Of a stretch of 64,000 nucleotides of DNA, positions 4,507 through 43,050 are shown piece by piece. A program made the translations under genes and the position numbers. The notes below the pieces were generated by a model that was not told the DNA's origin, ran no database searches, and saw only the letters and a list, made by a program, of their open reading frames with translations. Source of the stretch: an uncultured archaeon (GTDB lineage Archaea > Aenigmatarchaeota > Aenigmatarchaeia > Aenigmatarchaeales > JAHLMS01); the NCBI GenBank assembly GCA_964353775.1, contig CAYGWB010000006.1:115991-179990 (forward strand), in the 5' to 3' direction. How positions within the stretch are numbered: the first letter of the stretch is position 1; every line of letters starts with the position of its first letter.

Positions 4507-4803
4507 GGTGTGCCGGGCGTAGCCCGTCTTCTGTAGTAGGTATCGGTCCGCGCAGATGCGGACGTCACTTGTCCCCTGACAGCATTCGTCTAAGCTGGGT
4601 ACCCGGCCCTCCTTCATCATCAGGCCTGCTTCCCATTGCACCTTGCCGGCGTAATGCGTTTCAGCCGGAACATGTTTTCGCTCCACTGAACGCGCCCAAA
4701 CCTCTCGACTTGATCACTTGCGTGATGGCAAATGGCTGCGCCACTGATGGCGGACGGAGCTTTCTCCCCGCTTGCGCGAGGGCAGCTGTCTGCCCGGCTC
4801 ACC
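4507..4803 (-). ncRNA. Structured ncRNA, candidate RNase P RNA (SRP RNA is the alternative)
   Basis: A 297-nt ORF-poor GC-rich segment. Its ends are complementary (ggugagccgggc with gcccggcacacc), as in P1. On the minus strand it has a GCAA-tetraloop hairpin, a CR-I-like gGAGAAAGCUCCGUCC, and a CR-V-like ACAGAAGACGGGCUA 13 nt from the 3' end. A TTTAAAAA box lies at 4826-4833, just upstream. Confidence 0.4.
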
Positions 4804-5483: not shown

Positions 5484-5913
5484 AGCTTTCAAATGGAAAT
5501 AATATTATTTAAAGCTTACGCTAGTTCGAAATTGAAATAAAATTTAACCAGCAGAGGAATTTCAGGGGGTCAATAGAGGTGCAAAATCGTTGGCCGTTGG
5601 GGACTCCGAGCTGAACACGTCGCCGAAGCTTCGTGCGTACACCCGAGTTCCATTAAGCGGGTCATCTAGCCCGCGGCCATCGCCTCTTTTTCCCGGACGG
5701 TTCGGACTTAGTTCGGCGCACCGCTATAGCAGGTTCCTTCTTATAGCTACAGCTGGCGCTATGCCTTCAGTCCTTACCGCTTATCGCGTAGCTGCCCGGC
5801 ATTGCCTTTCGACAACCGGTCAACCAGTGGCGACGAACGCGCGTTCCTTTCGTACTTGCGCATTCTTCGGGTCAGGCGACTAAACACCCTCGGAAGATAT
5901 AAACCATACTGTC

Positions 5914-6123
5914 TATGTCGTCTCGCGTGGGCAAACACTAATCATAATTTACCGTAAGGGGTATCGTGCAGTCACAGCTAGCCAGAGCTAAAGCTCAGCA
6001 CGTTATCATACTTACGGTGTGCAAAACTAACCGGTCATAAAGGGTTTAGATATTCATAGCGGCTGACGCCGCTCAACTAACTTCAGATTACTTCATCCCG
6101 GTTCGAAGACGCCCACGTCGAAA
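5914..6123 (-). other. 210-nt intervening sequence in 23S domain V between GUCGUGA and GACAG (E. coli about 2598/2599, next to A2602); putative intron or IVS
   Basis: The flanking exon sequences are contiguous in all known 23S rRNAs. The insert ends carry the inverted repeat cgugggc/gcccacg, which could form a closing helix. Confidence 0.55.
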
Positions 6124-6271
6124 TCACGACGTATTGAACCCAGCTAACGTCCCCCTTTAATCAATAAACCCTTGCACCCTTGGCCGCTACTGCACGGCCA
6201 GGAGGGGGGGAGCCGACAGCGAGGTAGCAACGCGCGGGGTCGATAGGAGCTCTCGCCCGCCACGACTCTGT

Positions 6272-6422
6272 TATAGAGTGGCGATGCACAGAAACAGATC
6301 GGCTGCAACTTCCTTAGCCGACCTATCGGGTCCTCTGGATATCTATTTCTAATTCTAATCAAAAGGATTTTCCAGAAGACCCGTTACTCTGCACAACTTA
6401 TCTCTTCAGAATTTCTTCACCA
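6272..6422 (-). other. About 150-nt intervening sequence in 23S domain V inside GGGGAUA|ACAG (E. coli about 2449-2451, next to A2451); putative intron or IVS
   Basis: The exon flanks CCCCGGGGAUA and ACAGAGUCGUGGCGG are universally contiguous. An AUA direct repeat sits at both junctions. Confidence 0.55.
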
Positions 6423-9400
6423 TATCCCCGGGGTAGCTTTTCTGAAGTTACCGATATCCATCAAGGACGCTCGGCATATCGTTAGCCCATGCTTTCGCAG
6501 CTGGATCGCTTGCTATTCGCGATCCAGTCAAGCCAGCTTTTGCGCTTACACTCTACTCCAGATTTCTGACCTGGATGAGCTGACCTTAGGGCGCTCTTGA
6601 TATCCTGTCAAGAGCGTACCGCCCCAGCCGAGCGGCCCACCAATCGGTGTTCCCCCAAGTCGAGGGTTAGCCATGCGTCCACGAGATGGCAGTGTTACAC
6701 TTTCGAGTATCCAACGACCGAAATCGTTGGCATGACCTCTTCTGCCTACTCTATGAAACCGCAAACACACAGCAACGACAGGCTGCCGCAGAGCTCCACG
6801 GGGTCTTCTCTTCCCACCGAGGGTCAGTGGCCTTTTCACCACTATAGCAGGTTCGCCAGGTTCCAGCCCGGGACAGCGGGGAAGTCGTTAAGCCCTTCAT
6901 GCGGGTCGCTAATTAAGCGACAAGGGATTACGCTACCTTAAGACGGTCAGAGTTACCGCCGCCGTTAACCGGGGCTTAGGTCGGTTGAAACCAACTTTAA
7001 CACACCGGCACTGGGCAGGCCTCACTGACTGTACAGATCGTTTCCGATTAGCAGTCAGCTACGTTTTTGTTAAACAGTCGCTTCCCCCTTGTTAGTGACA
7101 CCTGCGCATCCCTGCGCAGGCAAAGGTTATACCGAAGATACCCTTCTAGATTGCCGAGTTCCCTGGACTGGTGTCTCCTGACACGCCATTGCCTTTTCAG
7201 CAAGGGGCACGTGTGTCCGTTCTTGGTACGGACATGGTGCGTCGTTCTCGCCTTCCTTTTCATGGACTCTGGAAATTTCTCCAATTCCCGCTTGCGCAGA
7301 AACTATGCACGCCCTCGGCTCCTTCTCTCCTTGACGGAACTCCGGAGCCTTCAGCGCTCAACTTACGTGGAAATATCCCAAAGTGTCGGAATGCGAGCTT
7401 GCGTCGCCGCAGCTAGCACCATGGTCACGGAATATTAACCGTGTTCCCTTTCGTCAACTTCAGTTAAGGGTTGACTTAGGACCGACTGACTCCCGGCCCA
7501 AAAAAGTTGCCGGGAAACCCTTGCCCTTTAGGCGGAGAGGATTCCAACCTCTCTTTGCTGTTACTTCTGGCAGGATTATCGATGCTGAACGGTCCATCGG
7601 AACTCACGCCCCGACTTCTACCCGAACAGCACGCCTTCCTATTCTATCGCTTTCGCGATCTCCGGTATCGGCCATGTACTTACCCCCGTCCATTTTGGCC
7701 GCACCGGCCCTCGAGAGGTCCGCTGTTACGCGTTGTTTGACGGATGGCTGCTTCTAAGCCTACCGCCCTCCTGTCTTGGGACCGGCACCAGCTTTGTGTA
7801 TTAGTACATAGTTAGGGGCCTTAACCAGAGGCTAGTTTGTTCACTTTTCGGGCACCGAGCTTACCCCAGTACCCTCACTCCCGCGGTCTTCGAGCCCAGC
7901 GTATTGTTAGTTTGTCAGGGATGCCGCCGATTTCTCAGCTTAACACCCCAAACAGTGCTTTACCCCACCGGGACCCTCACGCGAGGCTGTCCTGAGGGAC
8001 ATTTCGGAAGGAACCAGCTATCACCGTTTTCGATTGGCTTTTCACCCCTAATCCCAGGTCACCCGAGTGATTCGTAGCTCAACATCGGTATCAGCCCTCC
8101 ACGGGCCTTTCGGCCCGCTTCAGCTTACCCAGGATTAGATCAAACGGTTTCGGGTCTCACGCCCGTGACTACCCGCCCTTTCAGACGGCGCCCCTCACCA
8201 CTTGCGTGGATGCGGGCTTGTTGCTTTCGCTACGGTTACCTGCCTTCGCAGTTAGCCTCGCCACGAACGTGAACTCCCTGCCTCGTGTTTCGAAACGAAC
8301 TCCATAACCCTGTAATCGACCGCTCGTACACGCCGTTTGCACGGCTTTCCTTCGCAGTCGCACCTTTCAGGCCATGGATGACTATTACCAACTGGTTTCG
8401 GGATATTTTCACCTTCGGTGAAGAATACTTTTCAGCTTTCAGTCACCTTACTGATTTCGCTATCGGTTTCGCGAGATATTTAGGGTTGGCTGTTGATGTC
8501 AGCCACCTTTCGCCTGCATATCCGAGCAGACGTACTCGATTCCTGCAATCAACCCAACAGTCTACGCCTACGGGGCTATCACCCTTTGTCGCGCGCCGTT
8601 CCAGGCTACTTCGACTCGACTGCCAGGTCGTACGCAGATCCCACATCTTCGGCACATTACTGTGCAGAATTCGGTTCGCCCTGTTCCGCTTTCGATCGCC
8701 TTTACTAACGGAATCGCAATTGTTTTCTTCTCCTCCGCTTAATAAAATGCTTTAATTCAGCGGGTTCCCACTCCTCACGGAGCACCGGCCGAAGCCGGTA
8801 TGAGGTCACATTCGGAGATGATCGGTTCTCAGGCTGCGTGCGCCTCGCCGATCCTTTTCGCAGCTTGCTGCGTCCTTCATCGGTCTCGCGAACCAAGCCG
8901 TCCACCAGCTGGTTTATTTTGCGTGTGCGTAGGTCGATGCCTACGCTATTGACACCTGCTATTGACCCTATCCTATTCCTCTGCTGGTCTCATCGACAAA
9001 ATTGTCTCATGAGGCTCATTGGATAACAACGTTATCATTCACTGCCTCGGATGCGGCTTGCTTCACGTGTTGTTCTCATCGGGCTCTATAGCTACTCCGA
9101 CTTTCATCGCGCTTTCGCGCTCGTTTTGGGACGGTCGGTTCATCGCCCTCGATTTATCGACCTTGGCCGTAAAGCGTTGCCGCGTCACAGACGTAAAGTC
9201 TGTTATGACCCTTCCACCACGACTTGTGGTCGTGATGTGCACATTTTTTTCACCGCGTCATTTACCCCATGGGCATTTCATCGTGCTTTCGCACTCAGCC
9301 GCGTTTGCTGATTTTCATCCGCGGTGTTTGCGCGCGTATGGTATGCGCGCATCACATTTTCATGTGACTATGATTTTTGATGTTTTAGATGGATTTTGAT

Positions 9401-9732: not shown

Positions 9733-10929
9733 TCATTTCAGCCCGAGTTCTCTTTTCAGTTCGTCGGCCTTGTCCGTCTTCTCCCACGTGAAATCCGGAT
9801 CGTTCCGCCCGAAATGGCCGTAGGCAGCAGTCTTCTTGTAGATGGGCCTATTTAGCCTGAGCGTTTCTATGATCTTCTTCGGACTGCAGTTGAATATTTT
9901 CCTGACAGCCTCCAGAATCTTCTCTTCTGGCACCTTGTTCGTTCCGAAGGTCTGAACGAGTATCGAGACGGGCTGTGCGATGCCAATCGAGTATGCGAGC
10001 TGCACTTCGCACTTGTCAGCCGCGCCTGAAGCGACGATGTTCTTCGCTATATATCTTGCCATGTAGGCGGCCGACCTGTCGACCTTGGTCGGATCCTTAC
10101 CGGAGAAGCAACCGCCGCCGTGCCTTCCCATGCCGCCGTAGGTGTCAACAATTATTTTCCTGCCTGTGACGCCCGTGTCCGCCTCGGGCCCGCCAACGAC
10201 GAAAATACCAGTCTCGTTTATGAAAATTTTTGTGTCCCTGTCCATGTAGTTCTTGCAAACGGGCTTTATCACGTTTTCCAGTATGTCGCTTCTTATCTTC
10301 TCCCTGCCGACTTCAGGACTGTGGTGGACCGCCACAACGACGGCTTCCAATCTTTTCGGTTTGCCATTCTCATATTCCACCGTGACCTGGGACTTGCCAT
10401 CGGGCCTGACCCAGTCGAGAACCCTTTTCTTCCTCACTTCCGCGAGTCTCATGGTAAGCCTGTGGGCAAGCGTTATCGGGAGCGGCATGAGCTCAGGCGT
10501 CTCGTTGCAGGCAAAACCGAACATCATTCCCTGGTCCCCAGCGCCCTGTTCATGGCCATCGGTCTCGTCGACGCCAACAGCAATGTTCCGGCTCTGCTCA
10601 TGAATCGCAGTCAGGACAGCACAGTCCTTGCAATCGATACCGAACTCGGGATTGGTATAACCTATGTCTTGAAGGGTGTTTCTCACGACAGTCGGTATGT
10701 CTACGTAGCAATTGGTTGTGACCTCACCAGCAACCATAACTAGTCCCGTTGTGGTCAGACATTCGATGGCCACCCTTGCCTTCGGATCTTTGGTATATAT
10801 CGCGTCGAGAATGGCATCGGAAACCTGATCACATATCTTGTCCGGATGACCTTCTGTAACGGACTCTGACGTGAAAAGAACTTTTTCTGTCAATGATACA
10901 CACCTCCAATTTGTTAATTCAATCATCAT
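9733..10929 (-). CDS. metK: S-adenosylmethionine synthetase, bacterial/eukaryotic type (MetK)
   Basis: A 398-aa protein with [29 protein letters not shown] and GGGCFSGKD, which are canonical MetK motifs rather than those of the archaeal MAT type. Confidence 0.9.
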
Positions 10930-11092
10930 CAGTGCTTATAAATATTCATATACGCTTTTTCTGAGGACCGTGCTACCACTTTTCCCAGTGGATGAGCTCA
11001 TTCGCAGGTTTTCTTTTCGATTGGCCCGCCACCGGCATAGGTAGCCAAAACGGCCTTTCCCAGAAATCGGTTAAGTTCCTTTAACAATGATT

Positions 11093-11572
11093 TCATTTCC
11101 ATTTACCTTCGCTCCAAGGATGTGGATATAATTCCTTAATTGTGTATTTTTCTATGTTCTTGAAAAGGAAGTCAAAATTAGCGTCTTTTCTTTCAAAATA
11201 ACTGCCAGCACACAGAACGGTTGCTTTGCCATCAGAATATTCATGAATTACATCTCTGCATAAACCACAAGGAGTTAGATGGCCTCCTTTACCAACCGGA
11301 CCCATGACAAGAACAGCTTTAACTCTTGCTTTTTCAGTTTCTTTGAAAGCCATATCTGCTATAGCAACTCTTTCACAGCAAATTGTTCCGCTACAATTTT
11401 TTGGCTCAAATGGCTTACCTTCATATATTTTTCCAGAGTCAGAAATTATGCAGGCATATATAGTATCAAGTACTCCTTTCTTTCTCCTATTCATAATAAA
11501 TTTAGGGAATGCTTTTTTAGCAAAATTAATTAATTTATTTTCTTCTGCAGAAAACATTATCATCATGTCCAT
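11093..11572 (-). CDS. cdd: Cytidine/deoxycytidylate deaminase family protein (cytidine deaminase-like)
   Basis: Zinc-ligand motifs C-CERVAI (CxE) and PCGLCRDVI (PCxxC). The product is about 150 aa. Confidence 0.6.
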   Translation of the reverse strand: MDMMIMFSAEENKLINFAKKAFPKFIMNRRKKGVLDTIYACIISDSGKIYEGKPFEPKNCSGTICCERVAIADMAFKETEKARVKAVLVMGPVGKGGHLTPCGLCRDVIHEYSDGKATVLCAGSYFERKDANFDFLFKNIEKYTIKELYPHPWSEGKWK

Positions 11573-12806: not shown

Positions 12807-14378
12807 CTATCGTTCCAGTATGAACCTATGTTTGTGGGACACCTTGGTCGGAACCCTGCCTATCAGCATGCGCTCGGATATGTGTTTGCCGGCGGCCACA
12901 GGCTTTTCCTGTTCTGCCAAAGCAAGCGCCTCATTCAGATTCGCAGTACTTGAGGAGTAAATTGTGAAAAGCGTCTGGCCTTTCTTCACATGGTCCCCGA
13001 CCTTGACACCGAGCCGTATTCCCGCACCCTTGTCCTTTGGCGCACCAGCCAATCTGGCCACGGAAGTTATTTCGGCATTGCTTATCCAGAAAACCGTGCC
13101 GTCTGTTTCCGATTTGATCTGCACCTGTTTGTCTCCGATCGGAATGTCATCTATCTTGACGCGCGGATTTCCGCCCTGCGCATCTATTATCTGTCTGAAC
13201 TTCTTCTCGGCCTTGCCGCTCTTCAGTATGTCGTGCGCCACCTTCTTGCCTCTGGCGCTGTCCTTGCCGACAAGGTCGAAAAGCAGCCCTGCCAGGCTCG
13301 TCGCCTTCTCAATCACATCAGGCGATGCCTTTCCTGCGAGCGCTGCAAGTGTTTCCTGCGCCTCGAGTGCCGGTCCCATTGACCAGCCGAGCGGCTGTTC
13401 GCCGTAGGTGATTCCGCACACAACTGTCATTCCCAAACGCTGTCCAAGCTCGATGAAGTCTTCGGCGAGAGTGTGCGCCTGTCCTATTGTTTTTATCTTG
13501 GCACCACGACCTGTCGGTATGTCTATAACAACGTACTTGGAGCCGAGTGCCTTCTTCTTTGCCATTATTGACGGTAAGAGTAACGGATCGATACCGAGAG
13601 GATATTCTATCTTTATGAAAGCGTCATCAGCTGGAGCGAGCTCCAACGCTCCGCCCCAGACAAGACAACCGTTAGTCCTTTTCACGACACGCAGTATGTC
13701 TTCATAGCTCAGCGCCACCGGACAAAGAACTTCCATGCAATCTGCTGTGCCGGCAGGTGACGTGATGGCCCGTGAAGAAGTCTTCGGTATTGTCAGACCG
13801 GCCGCGGCGACTATTGGAACGACGAGCATGCTGGACTTGTTGTTGCCTGGTATCCCGCCTATGGAGTGCTTGTCGCAGACGCATTTGCCAGGCACTCTGA
13901 TTGTCTTGCCTGTCGCAAGCATCGCCCTGGTAAGATGCTCGATCTCATCCATGGACATGCCGTGGATATCGAGGGCGGTTACGAAAGCGGAAAGCTCGGC
14001 GTCCGACAGGTGGCGCTCGACCACGTCCTTGACTATGGCAAGCATCTCAGATGCGATCAGCCTGTCGCCTTTGATCTTCTCCTTGACGAACATGACCGAT
14101 TCGGGCGCCGACACGGGTTTGATATCTATCTGCTCACCCGACCTGATATTGAAAAATGAGTTCAGCTCCGAGTTTGTAACAACCTCGCCCGGCTTCGCGA
14201 ACTTCTTGGCCGTATCGACTATTGCTATTATTGATTTATTGCCCTTTGTCAGCTTTACGCGGTCAAGGGCGCGAATGCCCATTGTTCCGACGTCTTCCTT
14301 GTTGAGTATGACTACGCTCTTGCCGCCTGTCTCCATATCGATGGGTTTTGCACGCAGTCGCATGTCATTACGCCTCAC
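12807..14378 (-). CDS. deoA: AMP phosphorylase (thymidine-phosphorylase family with an N-terminal extension)
   Basis: A 523-aa protein. Its pyrimidine-nucleoside phosphorylase core (SIGGIPGNNKSSM, TSSRAITSPAGTAD) follows an extra N-terminal domain of about 80 aa. It is co-operonic with form III RuBisCO and e2b2. Confidence 0.8.
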   Translation of the reverse strand: MRRNDMRLRAKPIDMETGGKSVVILNKEDVGTMGIRALDRVKLTKGNKSIIAIVDTAKKFAKPGEVVTNSELNSFFNIRSGEQIDIKPVSAPESVMFVKEKIKGDRLIASEMLAIVKDVVERHLSDAELSAFVTALDIHGMSMDEIEHLTRAMLATGKTIRVPGKCVCDKHSIGGIPGNNKSSMLVVPIVAAAGLTIPKTSSRAITSPAGTADCMEVLCPVALSYEDILRVVKRTNGCLVWGGALELAPADDAFIKIEYPLGIDPLLLPSIMAKKKALGSKYVVIDIPTGRGAKIKTIGQAHTLAEDFIELGQRLGMTVVCGITYGEQPLGWSMGPALEAQETLAALAGKASPDVIEKATSLAGLLFDLVGKDSARGKKVAHDILKSGKAEKKFRQIIDAQGGNPRVKIDDIPIGDKQVQIKSETDGTVFWISNAEITSVARLAGAPKDKGAGIRLGVKVGDHVKKGQTLFTIYSSSTANLNEALALAEQEKPVAAGKHISERMLIGRVPTKVSHKHRFILER

Positions 14379-15363
14379 TCTTTAATTTTTTCCAGTACAA
14401 ATAAAACCATACCATCGGAATGATTGCGGATGCCACAAGCGTGAGGGCCAAAATGTGCCACACATCGACTGACAGCGGCCATTCAGGTATTCCGAATATA
14501 GTCGCAACAGTGTTCGGTATCGCCAGTATTGTCGCGATTGCTGTCCAGACGAACATGATATAGGTCAGTCGTTTTATTGAGGCGTTCACTTTGTTCGATA
14601 TCGTCGCCAGCTTGTTCGAGAGCACGGATTCGTAGATGGTCAGCGCGTCGGAGAGTGTGTCGCGCTGCGCGGACACTATCTCCATCTGGTGTACGTATGT
14701 GTCGTGCACGTCATCGAACAGCCTTGTCAGGTTCTCGTCCATGGTGATGGGCGTCATGCCCTTTTTGATGGAAAACAGAATCTTTGAGCTGCCCCAGAAC
14801 CTTCTCCACATGTTCAGCAGATCCCGCTTGAAATTCACGACGGCCGTTATTTTTTTGCCGGCCTGCTCCGGTAAAAGAACGGATTTCTCGAGTTCGCTGA
14901 TCTTTCTTTCACTTGCCGCCAGGACATCATAAGTCTCCTCGGAATCGCTGTCCATTATTTCGTAAAGAAGGTATCCTACGTTCAGGGGCATCTTCTTTAT
15001 CCTTGAGACATTGTCCTCAAAAATCTGGTCGAAGTGGGGAAGATTGGCCCTTGTGACTGTTATCAGGAAGTGCGTTCCGACCGCATACATGATGTTCTCG
15101 AGCGCGATCTGGCCCTTGGCAATATGATAGTCGACTATCGTGAAGGTCAGCGGCTTGAACGTGTAACGCACAGACCGTTGTTCGCGTTCGAACCGTTCCA
15201 ACGGGGCTTCGGCAATACCGAAATCTTTACGGATTCTTGCCAGTTCTGCAGAAGTCGGTGCTGTAACATGTACCCAGACGAAGCCTTTAGGCGGCTTTGG
15301 ATATTTGATCCCGCTGCCTGAACCGAACTTTTTGTCGGAGAACTTGTATAGCCAGCGAAGCAT
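14368..15363 (-). CDS. CorA/MIT-family divalent-cation transporter-like protein (GMN motif replaced by GIP-EWP)
   Basis: A 331-aa protein with a cytoplasmic domain and two C-terminal TM helices separated by IFGIPEWP (compare CorA YGMNFEYMPEL), and a KK tail. Confidence 0.55.
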   Translation of the reverse strand: MLRWLYKFSDKKFGSGSGIKYPKPPKGFVWVHVTAPTSAELARIRKDFGIAEAPLERFEREQRSVRYTFKPLTFTIVDYHIAKGQIALENIMYAVGTHFLITVTRANLPHFDQIFEDNVSRIKKMPLNVGYLLYEIMDSDSEETYDVLAASERKISELEKSVLLPEQAGKKITAVVNFKRDLLNMWRRFWGSSKILFSIKKGMTPITMDENLTRLFDDVHDTYVHQMEIVSAQRDTLSDALTIYESVLSNKLATISNKVNASIKRLTYIMFVWTAIATILAIPNTVATIFGIPEWPLSVDVWHILALTLVASAIIPMVWFYLYWKKLKSEA

Positions 15364-15393
15364 GAAAGAAATATTGCGGGCCCACTTAAATTG

Positions 15394-15807
15394 CTATCCG
15401 AGCGGACAAGTGGCCTCTCCGGTCGCCTGGTTGCAGGCCAGCTTCAGGTTCGAGCAGTCCAGCTTGTCAGAATGGTACTGGTTGTGGATATTGCATAGGT
15501 TGCCGATGTACCATTCGATCTCCGGCAGGGATGGGTTCGAGCATTCCTTCCAGTCGCTGCAGTGCTCGCAGGTATAATTACCCCAGAAATCGCAATTCTC
15601 GATCATCACAGTCTTTGCAGAGTCGCACTTGTATCCGGCCCTCGCGACCTCGCACCCGTTCTTCGGCAGGTTCACAGGTATGGCGATGATGATCACGAAC
15701 ACTATCAGAACTGCGAGTGCGATCCAGTCGATGCGCCGCCAGCTCTTGAAATAGCCGACGACGTCAAACTTCTTCTTATGCTCGTGATGTGCGTGCTCTT
15801 CGGTCAT
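15394..15807 (-). CDS. Membrane-anchored Cys-rich small protein (hypothetical)
   Basis: A 137-aa protein with a His-rich N-terminus, one TM helix and 12 Cys in its ectodomain. Confidence 0.45.
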   Translation of the reverse strand: MTEEHAHHEHKKKFDVVGYFKSWRRIDWIALAVLIVFVIIIAIPVNLPKNGCEVARAGYKCDSAKTVMIENCDFWGNYTCEHCSDWKECSNPSLPEIEWYIGNLCNIHNQYHSDKLDCSNLKLACNQATGEATCPLG

Positions 15808-15842
15808 GCTATCAACTAACGGATTGAACGCTTAAAAAAGTA

Positions 15843-17138
15843 TCATCTTGGCGAGATGAAGCCCCACTTGTCGATCGCCGCCTTCAGCTCCTTGTGCGTC
15901 TTCGCGTATTCCTTTAGATCGATGCCTTTCGTCGTTGCATCCACTGCCTGACGGAAGGCGGTTGCGCCTACGCGTGTCCCGCCAGGGTGGCCGTGAACCC
16001 CACCACCAGCCTGAAGTATTATGTCGTTGCCAAGCATCTTTACGAGCGGCGGAACTAGACCGGGATGCATTCCGCCGCTGCATACGGCGAACACGGGCTT
16101 GATGTGCCTCCACTCTTCACGCATGCGGTGTCCGCTCTCGGTGACGAAGCCTTTCTCGATCTCCTCGCCGATGGATATGACCTCTTTCTTTCCACCTTCC
16201 ATCTTTCCGACGATCGTTCCGATGTGTAGCTGATCCATCCCTATGAGACGGCAGCAGTCGGCAAGGACCATCATGGATATGCCGTGCTTCTTGTTCCTGG
16301 TCAGAGCTGCATGGCCTGCGCGGTGGGCGTGTATCACGAGCTGGAGCTCGTCGTTTATGTCCCTCAGGGTCTGAAGTGCGGCCCAACCGACTGTTAGAAC
16401 ATCAACCATGACATATTCTCCGCCCGCGTTCCTGACGAACTTCGCGCGTCGTATCATCTCGTTCGTTTCTGCTGATATGTTGGCCATGTACATCTTGCGT
16501 TCTCCGGTCTCTTTCTCGGCCTTGTCCCTCATCTTCAGCGTCTCGGTCACGCGTTCATCGAACTTGTTGAATGATTGTGACGTTAGATTCTCATCGTCCT
16601 TGACTATGTCCAGTCCTCCTGCCCATGCGTCGTACGCGACCTTTGCGTGGGCCTTCCATCCCAGACCGATCTTCGGTTTCACTATTGTGCCGCAGAGCGG
16701 CCTTTTTGGAACTCTGAGCAGACGGCGTATGCCAGGGATGCCGTAGAAAGGCCCCTTGAAAGAATCCATGAGCTTCTCTGGCCAGTGAATATCCTCCAAG
16801 CGCAAATTATTGACGGCCTTCATGCCGAAGACATTGCCGGCGACCGAGCTGAGTATGCACGGCATGTTCCCGAGCTCGAACAGCTCCAGAGGGTAGGCGA
16901 TGCGCACGTACGGCCCTTTGATTTCATAAACCTTGGCAGCCATGCGCATGATGTCCGTACCGGACGTCTTCACCTCCGTCCACGTTCCGACGCTGGACTC
17001 GGCAGCAACCGCCTCGGCCGCGATCTTCATCGAAATTCCTTTCGCAGGCTCCATGCGAAAAAGGCATAACAGATCCGTCTCGGAAGGTTTGTACTTCAAA
17101 TCGATATAACCGCTATAAGCTACTTTTGGCATGTACAT
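15843..17138 (-). CDS. rbcL: Ribulose-1,5-bisphosphate carboxylase/oxygenase large subunit, form III
   Basis: A 431-aa protein with GGLDIVKDDENLTSQ, GIPGIRRLL and a KPKIGLG carbamylation-lysine context. No small-subunit gene is present. Confidence 0.9.
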   Translation of the reverse strand: MYMPKVAYSGYIDLKYKPSETDLLCLFRMEPAKGISMKIAAEAVAAESSVGTWTEVKTSGTDIMRMAAKVYEIKGPYVRIAYPLELFELGNMPCILSSVAGNVFGMKAVNNLRLEDIHWPEKLMDSFKGPFYGIPGIRRLLRVPKRPLCGTIVKPKIGLGWKAHAKVAYDAWAGGLDIVKDDENLTSQSFNKFDERVTETLKMRDKAEKETGERKMYMANISAETNEMIRRAKFVRNAGGEYVMVDVLTVGWAALQTLRDINDELQLVIHAHRAGHAALTRNKKHGISMMVLADCCRLIGMDQLHIGTIVGKMEGGKKEVISIGEEIEKGFVTESGHRMREEWRHIKPVFAVCSGGMHPGLVPPLVKMLGNDIILQAGGGVHGHPGGTRVGATAFRQAVDATTKGIDLKEYAKTHKELKAAIDKWGFISPR

Positions 17139-17167
17139 TCCACCTCATGAATATTTCTTCTGATTGT

Positions 17168-18004
17168 TCATTTTAGCAACCTTTTTACATTGCCTGGAGT
17201 CATGATGCCCTTCTCTGTTATGATGCGCGTGACCAGATTCCAGGGTGTGATATCGAAGGCCGGGTTGCGGACGGCCGCGCCGTGCAGTTCGTGCAGCTCA
17301 CGATAAACTTCTTTCGGGGGGCGCTCTTCGATTTCGAACTTCTTACGCTTGTCGAGCTTGAATGTTGAAGCGACAGTATAGAACGGCTTCTTGTGAACGT
17401 GGGCCAGTAGCGCCATCGGATAAGTTCCTGTCTTGTTTATCAGGCCCTCTTTCATACGCAGCGCGTCGCAGCCGACGATGACGGCGTCACATTCCGGCAT
17501 GAAGAAACCTGCAGCTGCATCGGTTATCAACGTGACCGGTATTTTCGCGGCCCTGAGCTCCTTTACGGTCCGTATGCCTTGCTCGACGGGCTCGGTCTCC
17601 GTGGCAATTATGTGAACCTTCTTTCCGGACGACCATGCGGCCTTCATGACGGACAGGGCCTCACCAGAATGACAATGGGTCATTATGGTCCAACCTGGTT
17701 TGATGACCTTTGAACCGATTATTCCCAGCCGTTTTGTAGCCGTCTGCAGTTGTACGAGCAGACGGTCGATTGATTTTGCGTTGCGCTCCCTTCTGACGGC
17801 CTCGATGACGTTGTGCAGCGGCACTGCTGTCGGGCGCGCGGCCTCGATCTTTTTGCAGGCATCATCGAACTTCTTTCCGAAACCGTTCTGCTTAGAGAAA
17901 TGTTTTAGAAATTTGAGACTCGCGACAGCTATCTCCTTCGCGCCTTGGATATGCAGCGCTCGGAGCTCGTGAACGAACTGTTCGAGCGTAAGCTGTTTCG
18001 GCAT
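17168..18004 (-). CDS. e2b2: Ribose-1,5-bisphosphate isomerase (eIF-2B alpha/beta/delta family)
   Basis: A 278-aa eIF2B-like fold protein (IMTHCHSGEAL..). It sits 30 nt upstream of rbcL in the AMP-salvage operon. The MTR-1-P isomerase alternative cannot be excluded. Confidence 0.6.
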   Translation of the reverse strand: MPKQLTLEQFVHELRALHIQGAKEIAVASLKFLKHFSKQNGFGKKFDDACKKIEAARPTAVPLHNVIEAVRRERNAKSIDRLLVQLQTATKRLGIIGSKVIKPGWTIMTHCHSGEALSVMKAAWSSGKKVHIIATETEPVEQGIRTVKELRAAKIPVTLITDAAAGFFMPECDAVIVGCDALRMKEGLINKTGTYPMALLAHVHKKPFYTVASTFKLDKRKKFEIEERPPKEVYRELHELHGAAVRNPAFDITPWNLVTRIITEKGIMTPGNVKRLLK

Positions 18005-18698: not shown

Positions 18699-19193
18699 GT
18701 GATATGTATGCCAAAAAAGCTGGAATGGCAACATGTTGCATTTCTCGGTAACGTACTCGAGACAAACCTTGCAATGAACGAAATAGTCGATGGCAGGGCG
18801 AACTTTCTGGCAGGTCTGTCGGGCATAATGTTGACGATAGCGCTGACCCAGGTATTCACGTCTGCAGGCTGGGACAGGGCAGGCTTCAGTGTATTGTCTT
18901 TGACGTGCTTCGTAGTGGCGTTCCTCGCCATAGGCGTGATCCGACCGAGGATCCGCGTGTTCAACAAGAACAACATGTACTATCTCGGAATCGTAAAGAA
19001 CTCCCGCGAGAACTACAGAAAACTCATGAAGAGCTTGATAAAAGACGGCAATAAGGTTATAGACGAGTACGTCGATGAAGTCTACGACCTTTCCAAGGAG
19101 CTTAAGATAAAGTTCAAACTTCTGCGCTATGCGGCGGATGTATTGGCCATCGGCCTGGCCGCCGGCATGACACTGATAATACTTCCGATATGA
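18699..19193 (+). CDS. Small 3-TM membrane protein (hypothetical; SLATT-like topology)
   Basis: A 164-aa protein with two TM helices, a soluble K/E-rich helix, and a C-terminal TM. The start lies 3 nt after the pcm stop. Confidence 0.45.
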   Translation: MICMPKKLEWQHVAFLGNVLETNLAMNEIVDGRANFLAGLSGIMLTIALTQVFTSAGWDRAGFSVLSLTCFVVAFLAIGVIRPRIRVFNKNNMYYLGIVKNSRENYRKLMKSLIKDGNKVIDEYVDEVYDLSKELKIKFKLLRYAADVLAIGLAAGMTLIILPI

Positions 19194-42510: not shown

Positions 42511-43050
42511 ATGTCAACTATTTGCATGCAACAAGCACCTCCGATGCAGCCGGTACCTCCGCTCGGGCCGCCTCCTAGACAGCAAGGAACGCCACGCGAA
42601 AACATGCTTGCACACTTTCACCCTTCACGACTCGCTTTCTTCAAGCTGTACGTTTCGGCCATAGCACTCATTGTTATCACGCTTTTGCTCCAGACAGAAT
42701 TGATGCCAACCATTGTCCAACAATATAGATTATACACATTGGTGCTTATTGCACCGGCCGTGATACTTCTATTATTGGCCGAGCTCAGACGGATGACCGA
42801 TACCTATACAATAACAAACCTTACCGTTGTAGAGCGCATCGGTATCCTGCGTATCAACGAGAGCTTCGTAAACGTCGACAAAATATCGAGCACCACCATC
42901 AAGCAGTCGCTGTTAGACCGTCTGTTCGACATAGGCTCAATTGAAATGTGGTCGACGGGCGGGTCGGACGAACCTGAGATATCGATAGAAAAGATAGCGA
43001 ACGTACGACGCACAAAACAAATAATTGACCAGCTAGTGCAGCAGAGCTAG
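42511..43050 (+). CDS. Membrane protein with a bacterial-PH (bPH_2/YdbT-like) domain
   Basis: A 179-aa protein with a Pro/Gln-rich N-terminus, two TM helices, and then the ITNLTVVERIGILRINESFVNVDKISS pattern. Confidence 0.45.
   Translation: MSTICMQQAPPMQPVPPLGPPPRQQGTPRENMLAHFHPSRLAFFKLYVSAIALIVITLLLQTELMPTIVQQYRLYTLVLIAPAVILLLLAELRRMTDTYTITNLTVVERIGILRINESFVNVDKISSTTIKQSLLDRLFDIGSIEMWSTGGSDEPEISIEKIANVRRTKQIIDQLVQQS

Follow-up and report, generated by a model that had tools for sequence, protein, structure and literature searches.

Two putative archaeal-type introns in the peptidyl-transferase centre of a 23S rRNA gene, one of them a candidate carrier of a methylation guide for its own host RNA

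We analysed a 64,000-nt stretch of DNA from an uncultured archaeon (contig CAYGWB010000006.1 of GenBank assembly GCA_964353775.1, positions 115,991 to 179,990), here called the window and numbered from its first letter. Its minus strand carries a gene for 23S (large subunit, LSU) rRNA that is interrupted twice in the peptidyl-transferase centre by segments that we interpret as archaeal introns of the bulge–helix–bulge (BHB) type, hereafter intron 1 and intron 2 (Table 1). The gene exceeds the 2987-nt archaeal LSU model of Rfam by 361 nt, and the two inserts of 151 and 210 nt account for this excess exactly. A preliminary description, made from the letters of the stretch, had recognized two segments without counterpart in 23S rRNA, and alignment to RF02540 together with reading of the sequence bears this out; the span it gave for the gene (5595–8935) is replaced by the covariance-model match listed in Table 1. 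In a local alignment to the LSU model, window positions 6274 to 6113 correspond to model positions 2543–2701, the exon between the inserts. Read on the RNA strand, insert 1 is flanked by ccccggggata and ataacag, and its junction slides over AUA with four equivalent placements; insert 2 is flanked by gtcgtg(a) and (a)gacag. Excision of both in silico leaves an RNA of 2987 nt, in agreement with the ∼ 2.98 kb first estimated, and regains the universal GGGGAUAACAG and GUCGUGAGACAG. The sites can be placed at Escherichia coli 2449/2450 and 2597/2598 because the exon between the inserts is 148 nt long, the same as E. coli 2450–2597, and the numbering proposed earlier was right. No open reading frame (ORF) of useful size fits either insert, as had also been noted. 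Insert 1 folds better than its shuffled versions (z = −3.97); the value for insert 2 is z = −2.1.

The junctions of both inserts form a splice motif with a 4-bp central helix (H) and two 3-nt bulges on opposite strands, the splice site lying after the second bulge nucleotide. The adjoining intron-internal helix (h′) is 6 bp long in intron 1; that of intron 2 has 5 + 7 bp. Cuts after the second bulge nucleotide give exactly the conserved mature sequences at both sites. The motif selects 6273–6423 for intron 1, where 6272–6422 had been given, itself one of the four equivalent placements; for intron 2 the length of 210 nt stands and the limits move from 5914–6123 to 5915–6124. The terminal repeats cgtgggc (6117–6111) and gcccacg (5932–5926), first proposed as the splice helix of this intron, are present and complementary, and they turn out to be the distal continuation of h′, not the splice helix itself. 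Folding of the junctions, the check suggested at the outset, thus yielded a BHB motif at both inserts, in the relaxed HBh′ (bulge–helix–loop) form and not in the strict hBHBh′ form, because a contiguous outer exon–exon helix is absent. The relaxed form is found in Crenarchaeota and Nanoarchaeota, and in other archaea relaxed motifs accompany broad-specificity endonucleases.

A loose-threshold scan of the whole precursor for canonical BHB motifs gave 289 hits, mostly chance, among which the motif in the pre-23S processing stem alone stands out. Since chance hits dominate such a scan, we took the significance of the intron motifs from a placement-restricted test in which the exons were kept and the introns shuffled, and a 4-bp H with an h′ of at least 5 bp was accepted at any placement that restores the mature RNA. 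Shuffled introns reached the quality of the real motifs in 126 and 117 of 200,000 trials (∼ 6e-4 per intron). The motif of the processing stem is a canonical hBHBh′, whose outer helix has at least 12 bp and whose inner helix has 10 bp, and would serve as a positive control for BHB processing in the host organism.

Relatives of the gene were sought by using ACCTCGCTGTCGGCTC, which spans the rare A2503C change, as an exact pattern in metagenome contigs, followed by BLAST, anchor searches and Rfam. About 18 archaeal LSU loci were identified in this way. The closest relative (L139) has introns at both sites, of 149 and 205 nt and homologous to those of the window; the exons of the two loci are 92–100% identical and the introns 67–75%. 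Site 1 is empty and site 2 occupied in L172 and L191. Site-2 introns of 188–330 nt are present in L139, L172, L152, L191 and L189; in L165 the contig ends within the copy. Among more distant genomic contigs, L100, L198, L134 and L092 have no intron at either site; site 2 is also empty in L087 and L150, likewise more distant. The inserts are no chance product of gap placement in the alignment: L139 has homologous ones at both sites, and one or both are missing from other relatives. Site 1 of L165 holds a 643-nt intron with termini of the same kind, which retains the splice motif with different letters (H GGGG/CCUC, h′ UGGCUAGC/GCUAGCCA) and encodes a 189-aa LAGLIDADG_3 protein (E = 1e-15). When the junctions of the six complete site-2 introns are aligned, 95.8% of the cells are paired, compared with 19–47% when the partner columns are slid; pairs with changes on both sides number 7 in total and 6 of the 12 in h′, and H is invariant.

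The splice motifs, the optional occurrence, the homing gene in some copies, the ORF-less remnants and the location in conserved regions lead us to classify the two inserts as relaxed-type archaeal BHB introns at 2449/2450 and 2597/2598, with a probability of roughly 0.8. This agrees with the preliminary description, which had proposed ORF-less archaeal-type introns; the covariation at the junctions and the absence of group I or II matches (below) add to the support. On this classification intron 1 is what remains, without an ORF, of a mobile intron that bore a LAGLIDADG gene, and intron 2 is a member of a family fixed at its site in this clade. Cleavage, ligation and circularisation of both introns are predicted. 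The four exon nucleotides upstream of each 5′ splice site would pair with the last four paired intron nucleotides to form helix H, and EndA, the tRNA/rRNA splicing endonuclease, would cut after the second nucleotide of each bulge. An RtcB-type ligase would then join the exons and circularise the intron, with GGGGAU-AACAG and GUCGUG-AGACAG restored in the peptidyl-transferase centre.

The relatives show further peculiarities of their LSU genes. A third intron site is apparent in L172 (∼ 10540–11360, minus strand), where an insert of ∼ 825 nt near E. coli 2070 encodes a 229-aa LAGLIDADG_3 protein and has no group I match. In L152 and L189 a short extra segment (GUUAGUGUUUUCUCUUUCUUUAGAGAAUAACGAGUAUA in L152) lies 35–38 nt after GAGAGCUCCUA, the tip of helix 89; it is absent from the window and the other relatives and may be a mini-intron or a small expansion. 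The window rRNA deviates at positions that are usually universal, with A2503C (CCUCGCUGUCGG) and an A loop that reads GGUUU instead of UGUUC (U2552G, C2556U). A2503C is common to the about 18 diverse archaeal LSU loci. L172, L152, L191 and L189 have GGGAAUAAGAG in place of GGGGAUAACAG (G2447A, C2452G).

Intron 2 contains a second element, missed in the preliminary description: a unit with the architecture of a box C/D double-guide RNA. Its closing stem AACCGG/CCGGUU leads into a terminal kink-turn (k-turn) made of a 3-nt loop (GAU) followed by G.A and A.G pairs, where GA of the 5′ strand faces AUGA, placed immediately beside the stem on the 3′ strand. The boxes read AUGAAGU (C), AUGA (D), UUGA (D′) and AUGAAUA (C′). 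In the internal part, D′ abuts the hairpin GCGGC-GUCA-GCCGC, after which come a loop UAU and GA. Both motifs of the unit thus have canonical k-turn geometry (stem, 3-nt loop, tandem G.A pairs), and the unit folds with z = −3.7. In the homologous unit of L139 every stem pair has changed and is compensated (GCAAA/UUUGC; GACAGC/GCUGUC). The leader upstream of the 23S gene holds two further units of this kind, A and B. Spacers from C to D′ and from C′ to D measure 13/12 nt in the intron unit, 13/13 in leader unit A and 12/12 in leader unit B, in line with a spacing of ∼ 12 nt.

Other parts of the introns were considered as guide elements. The conserved 66-nt hairpin downstream of the unit was rejected as a k-turn or C/D element, the required G.A pair beside the stem being missing on the 3′ strand. 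Intron 1 was rejected as a second guide carrier: it has rRNA complementarities of 8–9 nt but no k-turn architecture, and these were left as chance or remnant. Introns 1 and 2 have in common the motif (G/A)UGAAG-NAAU-(U)CUGAAG-...-GUUG (6395–6421 and 6078–6098, minus strand), and both copies are complementary to one exon segment, CUUCAGAA (6447–6440); the two introns could have a common origin or have exchanged sequence.

A box C/D RNA pairs its target nucleotide with the guide nucleotide five places upstream of box D or D′ (the N+5 rule). Applied to the unit of intron 2, this rule selects position 2552 in the A loop for the D guide and position ∼ 2426 for the D′ guide; among the leader guides, the D guide of unit A selects ∼ C2064 and the D′ guide of unit B selects G2251 in the P loop. 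The remaining two, the D′ guide of A and the D guide of B, may be aimed at 16S rRNA or tRNA. Ribose methylation of the P-loop nucleotide G2251 is conserved across life. The same is true of the A-loop methylation at 2552 (PMC7994747). Two of the predicted targets are exactly these, the two LSU ribose methylations that are conserved across life.

We favour, with some reservation, a reading in which intron 2 is not just a selfish remnant and carries a box C/D methylation guide for its own host 23S rRNA; the guide probably directs methylation at A-loop 2552 and at ∼ 2426. Several observations weigh against this. The boxes of the intron unit deviate from RUGAUGA and CUGA, and its C′/D′ part is closed by a hairpin, not by a short loop. 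In its minimum-free-energy fold the naked unit can also adopt a plain hairpin, with AUGAAG paired to CUUUAU. No C/D family of Rfam matches the intron unit, and the leader gives only hits at noise level; such families are specific to particular lineages. In L139, 8 of the 9 D-guide pairs are kept and the D′ guide has no match. The unit might therefore be a mere rod-like hairpin, with a complementarity to rRNA that is due to chance or serves folding of the precursor and not methylation. Chance would contribute to any such search, because 10% of random 13-mers reach the lenient threshold of an in-register duplex of at least 9 bp somewhere in the rRNA, and 9-mers are expected by chance at the size of intron 2.

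We nevertheless consider the hairpin-only explanation unlikely. Of the hits of an architecture scanner in the 64-kb window, three are good units and two are poor; the good ones all fall inside the 23S precursor (a 3.7-kb transcript), on the minus strand, and the poor ones elsewhere. Shuffled 64-kb windows gave 0.4 hits each. In 1.9 Mb of further loci the same scanner found only two convincing units, the L139 homologue and a free-standing canonical C/D RNA in L153. When these five units are aligned, AUGA is present in all ten C and C′ boxes, a feature the scanner had not required. The alignment was made by structure padding because MAFFT misaligned the units, and its 100% stem pairing was imposed by the scanner and so is not independent evidence. 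Across the intron unit and the two leader units, four of the six guides match the LSU in the N+5 register, which at the random rate of 10% is unlikely by chance (binomial about 1e-3), and two of them pick out exactly 2552 and 2251. Finally, the C/D RNA of L153 is independent of the window and is aimed at U2552, its D′ guide forming 9 pairs with the different A loop of the same contig, AGGUGUUCA. As this guide fits its own A-loop sequence, guide and target differ together between lineages.

Site-2 introns of other relatives hold what look like related modules. Single-guide k-turn modules and a 3′ module were noted in L152 (1146–1192, minus strand) and L189 (432–477 and 488–533, plus strand, and 630–683). 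The guide of L152 and that of L189 module 2 are in N+5 register to GCGUUGCUA in helix 89, about U2492. The guide of L189 module 1 is in register to GGCGGUAACUC in helix 69, about G1910; the LSUs of close relatives of L189 contain this sequence. The conserved 3′ module reads GAUGA-AUGGACCGCCCC...GGAGUAGCU-GAUGA and has both guide cores in common with leader unit B of the window; one relative's copy gives a weak match to the C/D family sR18 (22.7 bits, E = 0.14). A hammerhead reading of CUGAUGA...GAAA in this module was rejected, since the order and spacing of the elements do not fit.

Additional k-turn-like hairpins lie in the leader at 8990–9060 and 9170–9257 on the minus strand (GAGGC-AGU-GA...AAUGA-GCCUC; AUGA-GACAA-UU-UUGUC-GAU-GA; CGCG...GUGA-CGCG). 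The leader looks like an array of L7Ae-type binding sites reaching the processing stem. An ORF on the opposite strand (9019–9399, plus) has no Pfam match and is probably spurious.

In the model that we propose, the 23S precursor would itself supply the guides, from two units in the 5′ leader and one in intron 2, and these would be freed or positioned by the BHB endonuclease that also processes the rRNA and would install the ribose methylations at P-loop G2251 and A-loop 2552. The intron family would then be a movable cassette for rRNA modification guides, with relatives carrying the same or other modules (H69, H89, P-loop core).

Table 1. Features of the 23S rRNA locus in the window (RNA-strand reading; the last row lies on another contig)
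Feature	Position	Strand	Details
23S (LSU) rRNA gene	5578..8925	−	3348 nt with two putative introns; RF02540 LSU_rRNA_archaea, 2394 bits, model 1–2987
Putative intron 1, 151 nt	6273..6423	−	At GGGGAU|AACAG, E. coli 2449/2450; no ORF; two hairpins on one stem
Intron 1, predicted 5′ splice motif	6417..6429	−	H strand, exon GGGG 6429–6426; bulge A6425 U6424|A6423, cut after 6424; h′ UGGUGA 6422–6417
Intron 1, predicted 3′ splice motif	6272..6284	−	h′ UCGCCA 6284–6279; H CUCU 6278–6275; bulge A6274 U6273|A6272, cut after 6273
Putative intron 2, 210 nt	5915..6124	−	In the GUGA tetraloop of H93 at GUCGUG|AGACAG, E. coli 2597/2598; no ORF
Intron 2, predicted 5′ splice motif	6111..6130	−	H strand, exon GUCG 6130–6127; bulge U6126 G6125|A6124; h′ UUUCG 6123–6119, A6118 unpaired, CGUGGGC 6117–6111
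Intron 2, predicted 3′ splice motif	5914..5932	−	h′ GCCCACG 5932–5926 + CGAGA 5925–5921; H CGAC 5920–5917; bulge A5916 U5915|A5914
Box C/D-like double-guide unit of intron 2	6029..6103	−	Upstream of the 66-nt hairpin; found by the architecture scanner
Intron unit, candidate D guide UAAACCCUU	6040..6048	−	9 Watson–Crick pairs, positions 2–10 upstream of D, with A loop 6173–6165; N+5 = G6170 = E. coli 2552
Intron unit, candidate D′ guide UCUGAAGUUA	6078..6087	−	10 Watson–Crick pairs, positions 2–11 upstream of D′, with exon 6450–6441; N+5 = C6447, ∼ E. coli 2426
A-loop segment AAGGGUUUA, helix 92	6165..6173	−	In the exon between the introns; predicted target of the intron D guide
Conserved 66-nt rod-like hairpin of intron 2	5952..6017	−	In all six complete site-2 introns; 25 consensus pairs, 9 changed on both sides
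Processing-stem BHB, 5′ strand	8959..8975	−	UAGG (H), bulge AU|A, cut after 8970, GGGUCAAUAG (h′)
Processing-stem BHB, 3′ strand	5556..5576	−	CUAUUGACCC (h′), CCUG (H), bulge AA|A, cut after 5561, UUCC... outer helix
Leader unit A, box C/D-like double-guide	9251..9326	−	D guide with 6804–6796, N+5 = C6802, ∼ E. coli C2064; D′ guide without LSU match
Leader unit B, box C/D-like double-guide	9081..9148	−	D′ guide with P loop UGGGGCGGU 6626–6618, one G.U; N+5 = G6624 = E. coli G2251; D guide without LSU match
L153 free-standing canonical box C/D sRNA	4726–4802	+	Boxes AAUGAUGA, CUGA, GAUGAAG, CUGA; internal hairpin k-turn

The classification of the inserts as spliced BHB introns has to be set against three other readings, and three points count against it directly. 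First, the strict motif is incomplete. Intron 1 has no contiguous outer exon–exon pair and intron 2 a single one (C6131–G5913), with the basal stem of H93, AUAC/GUAU, 4 nt beyond that pair, and for want of an outer helix the bulge at the 3′ splice site is closed on one side only. Second, a Pfam scan of all ORFs in the 64 kb found no splicing endonuclease, RtcB, L7Ae, Nop5 or fibrillarin. Third, the contig that is without both introns among the close relatives (L125, 3048 nt) is no proof of an intron-less gene. Its 23S is circularly permuted, with LSU 748–2987 followed within ∼ 20 nt by 1–808, its ends overlap by 77 nt, and helix 1 is capped by a 7-nt loop, CUUAAAA, that links the 3′ and 5′ ends of the rRNA. 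It is probably an assembly from circular 23S RNA, judging by this arrangement, and circular 23S rRNA has lately been reported for archaeal ribosomes (PMC12918454). Given its RNA-derived, permuted look we did not count it as an intron-less gene among the close relatives.

The inserts might be excised and not religated, which would leave a 23S rRNA fragmented at the peptidyl-transferase centre, as happens with the intervening sequences that RNase III excises in bacteria. Ligation is not readable from sequence, the motifs predict the two cuts alone, and the Pfam scan of the window turned up no ligase gene. In archaea, however, BHB cleavage goes together with RtcB ligation, for introns of tRNA and rRNA as well as for pre-rRNA circles (PMC4496867, PMC12918454). 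The predicted cuts fall in the central loop of domain V and in the H93 tetraloop, whereas bacterial intervening sequences sit in peripheral helices such as H25 or H45, and the terminal helices are short and broken by 3-nt bulges instead of forming a long perfect stem. A homing endonuclease in a homologue is also typical of true introns. We therefore regard fragmentation as quite improbable; the excised intervening sequence, which the preliminary description had kept as its fallback, is a weaker reading than the spliced intron.

The inserts could also be retained expansion segments of a divergent ribosome, or the gene a decaying, non-functional copy. The divergence at universal positions (A2503C and the GGUUU A loop) would fit this, as would the position of insert 2 at the tip of a hairpin (H93). 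Both sites, however, lie in the core of the peptidyl-transferase centre, insert 1 is absent from relatives with identical flanking exon sequence, and the inserts are far less conserved than the exons between the window and L139. The processing stem is intact with its canonical BHB, the gene scores as a complete LSU, and A2503C occurs in many archaeal LSU genes. We hold this reading to be very improbable.

Degenerate self-splicing group I (or II) introns, like those at organellar LSU 2449 or DPANN LSU 2593, are the least credible of the three: site 1 coincides with the classical L2449 site, site 2 lies 4 nt from LSU/2593, the IA3 site of DPANN, and a homologue has a LAGLIDADG gene, but neither insert matches group I, group II or any other Rfam family at E ≤ 10, nor the relatives' introns a group I model at E ≤ 5, and the inserts, at 151 and 210 nt, do not exceed the smallest group I cores in size. 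A group I intron needs a terminal G, but U is the last nucleotide of both introns in all BHB-compatible placements that regain the mature sequence; it also needs a U at the end of the 5′ exon for the G.U pair of P1, and at intron 2 that exon ends in G. The junctions are accounted for exactly by the BHB-type motif.

In archaeal rRNA, introns of the BHB type are the rule, and remnants without an ORF are known (PMC4496867). The crenarchaeal examples (23S of Desulfurococcus, Staphylothermus, Pyrobaculum and Aeropyrum; 16S of Thermoproteales) likewise lie in highly conserved rRNA. Their core is formed by exon–intron pairing, LAGLIDADG genes occur in some of them while others are mini-introns or remnants without an ORF, and they are cut by the tRNA splicing endonuclease, ligated by RtcB, structured and stable (PMC4496867). 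Compared with these, the host here is DPANN-like and non-thermophile-looking (52% G+C), the sites are 2449/2450 and 2597/2598, both motifs are without an outer helix, and one intron has a guide-RNA-like unit. LSU genes of DPANN and other uncultured archaea may hold several introns each, with BHB beside group I introns (IA3 at 2593 and 2500, IB4 at 1923 and 1931), frequent LAGLIDADG genes and a hotspot at LSU/2593 (Nawrocki, Jones and Eddy 2018, PMC6125680); the introns of the window are not group I, and 2449 and 2597 are absent from the table of that paper. The group I introns at L2449 (yeast mitochondrial omega with I-SceI; myxomycete and fungal nuclear rDNA) and at L2593 (Chlamydomonas chloroplast with I-CreI; DPANN IA3) have the same or an adjacent insertion point and LAGLIDADG homing. 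They are self-splicing ribozymes, whereas the introns of the window have no group I core and have a protein-dependent splice motif.

A precedent for the guide is the box C/D sRNA inside the BHB intron of pre-tRNA-Trp (Haloferax; Pyrococcus sR50), as cited in PMC7994747. There too a guide nested in a BHB intron is aimed at the exons of its host and is released or positioned by the same splicing machinery. Here the host is 23S rRNA; the predicted unit forms a single module within a larger intron and has both a closing stem and a k-turn at its internal hairpin. Eukaryotic intron-encoded box C/D snoRNAs are likewise by-products of intron removal; their hosts are spliceosomal introns of Pol II genes, whereas here the host would be the precursor of the target rRNA itself. 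We found no report of a C/D sRNA in an rRNA intron or rRNA leader in the open-access literature, of which our coverage is incomplete.

The 23S gene is followed immediately by the gene for archaeal RNase P RNA (4508–4802, minus strand), an order that is kept in L139 (2233–2447) and L172 (8558–8826). A TATA-like GCTTTAAATA box stands ahead of the 23S leader (9580–9571) and of the RNase P RNA (5515–5506). Neither a 16S nor a 5S gene is present in the window; the rRNA genes are therefore unlinked. With its archaeal rRNA, RNase P RNA, CDP-archaeol synthase, AMP/RuBisCO-III pathway and many orphan ORFs, the window looks to come from a DPANN-like host. A S-adenosylmethionine synthetase of the bacterial/eukaryotic type (MetK) is encoded in this archaeal genome at 9733–10929 (minus). 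A genome-contig search for its relatives gave 80 loci at ≤ 75% identity, mostly DPANN and Firmicutes and with DPANN genomes nearest, none of which has an LSU gene or common neighbours; an exact-protein look-up found no identical MetK on record. Near MetK lies an archaeal AMP salvage set (12807–18004, minus) of AMP phosphorylase, form III RuBisCO and ribose-1,5-bisphosphate isomerase. A Pycsar effector transmembrane domain (PycTM, E = 2e-13) is present in a small protein encoded at 18699–19193 (plus), beside an ATP-cone protein and a DNA methyltransferase, and this neighbourhood may be a defence locus. A 20-kb block at 43047–63853 consists mostly of same-strand ORFs without Pfam match and includes a 2420-aa protein with one weak Ig-like match and proteins of 847 and 707 aa.

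As plain introns, the two inserts are a known kind of element and an ordinary result; what they contribute to this class, known since the 1980s, is further sites and another host lineage. In practice, inserts of this sort disrupt the annotation of rRNA, primers and phylogenies. The position of the two sites, one at the classical L2449 and one 4 nt from L2593, is also relevant to the proposal that shared LAGLIDADG homing enzymes let BHB introns and group I introns trade sites. The guide cargo sets intron 2 apart. If true, it would be the first methylation guide borne by an rRNA intron in the literature that we searched, and, with guide and target on a single transcript, the archaeal equivalent of intron-encoded snoRNAs. 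It would also give a selective reason for keeping an ORF-less intron in the peptidyl-transferase centre, and it would mean that organisms with small genomes install the universal Nm2552 and Gm2251 by RNA guides drawn from the rRNA precursor.

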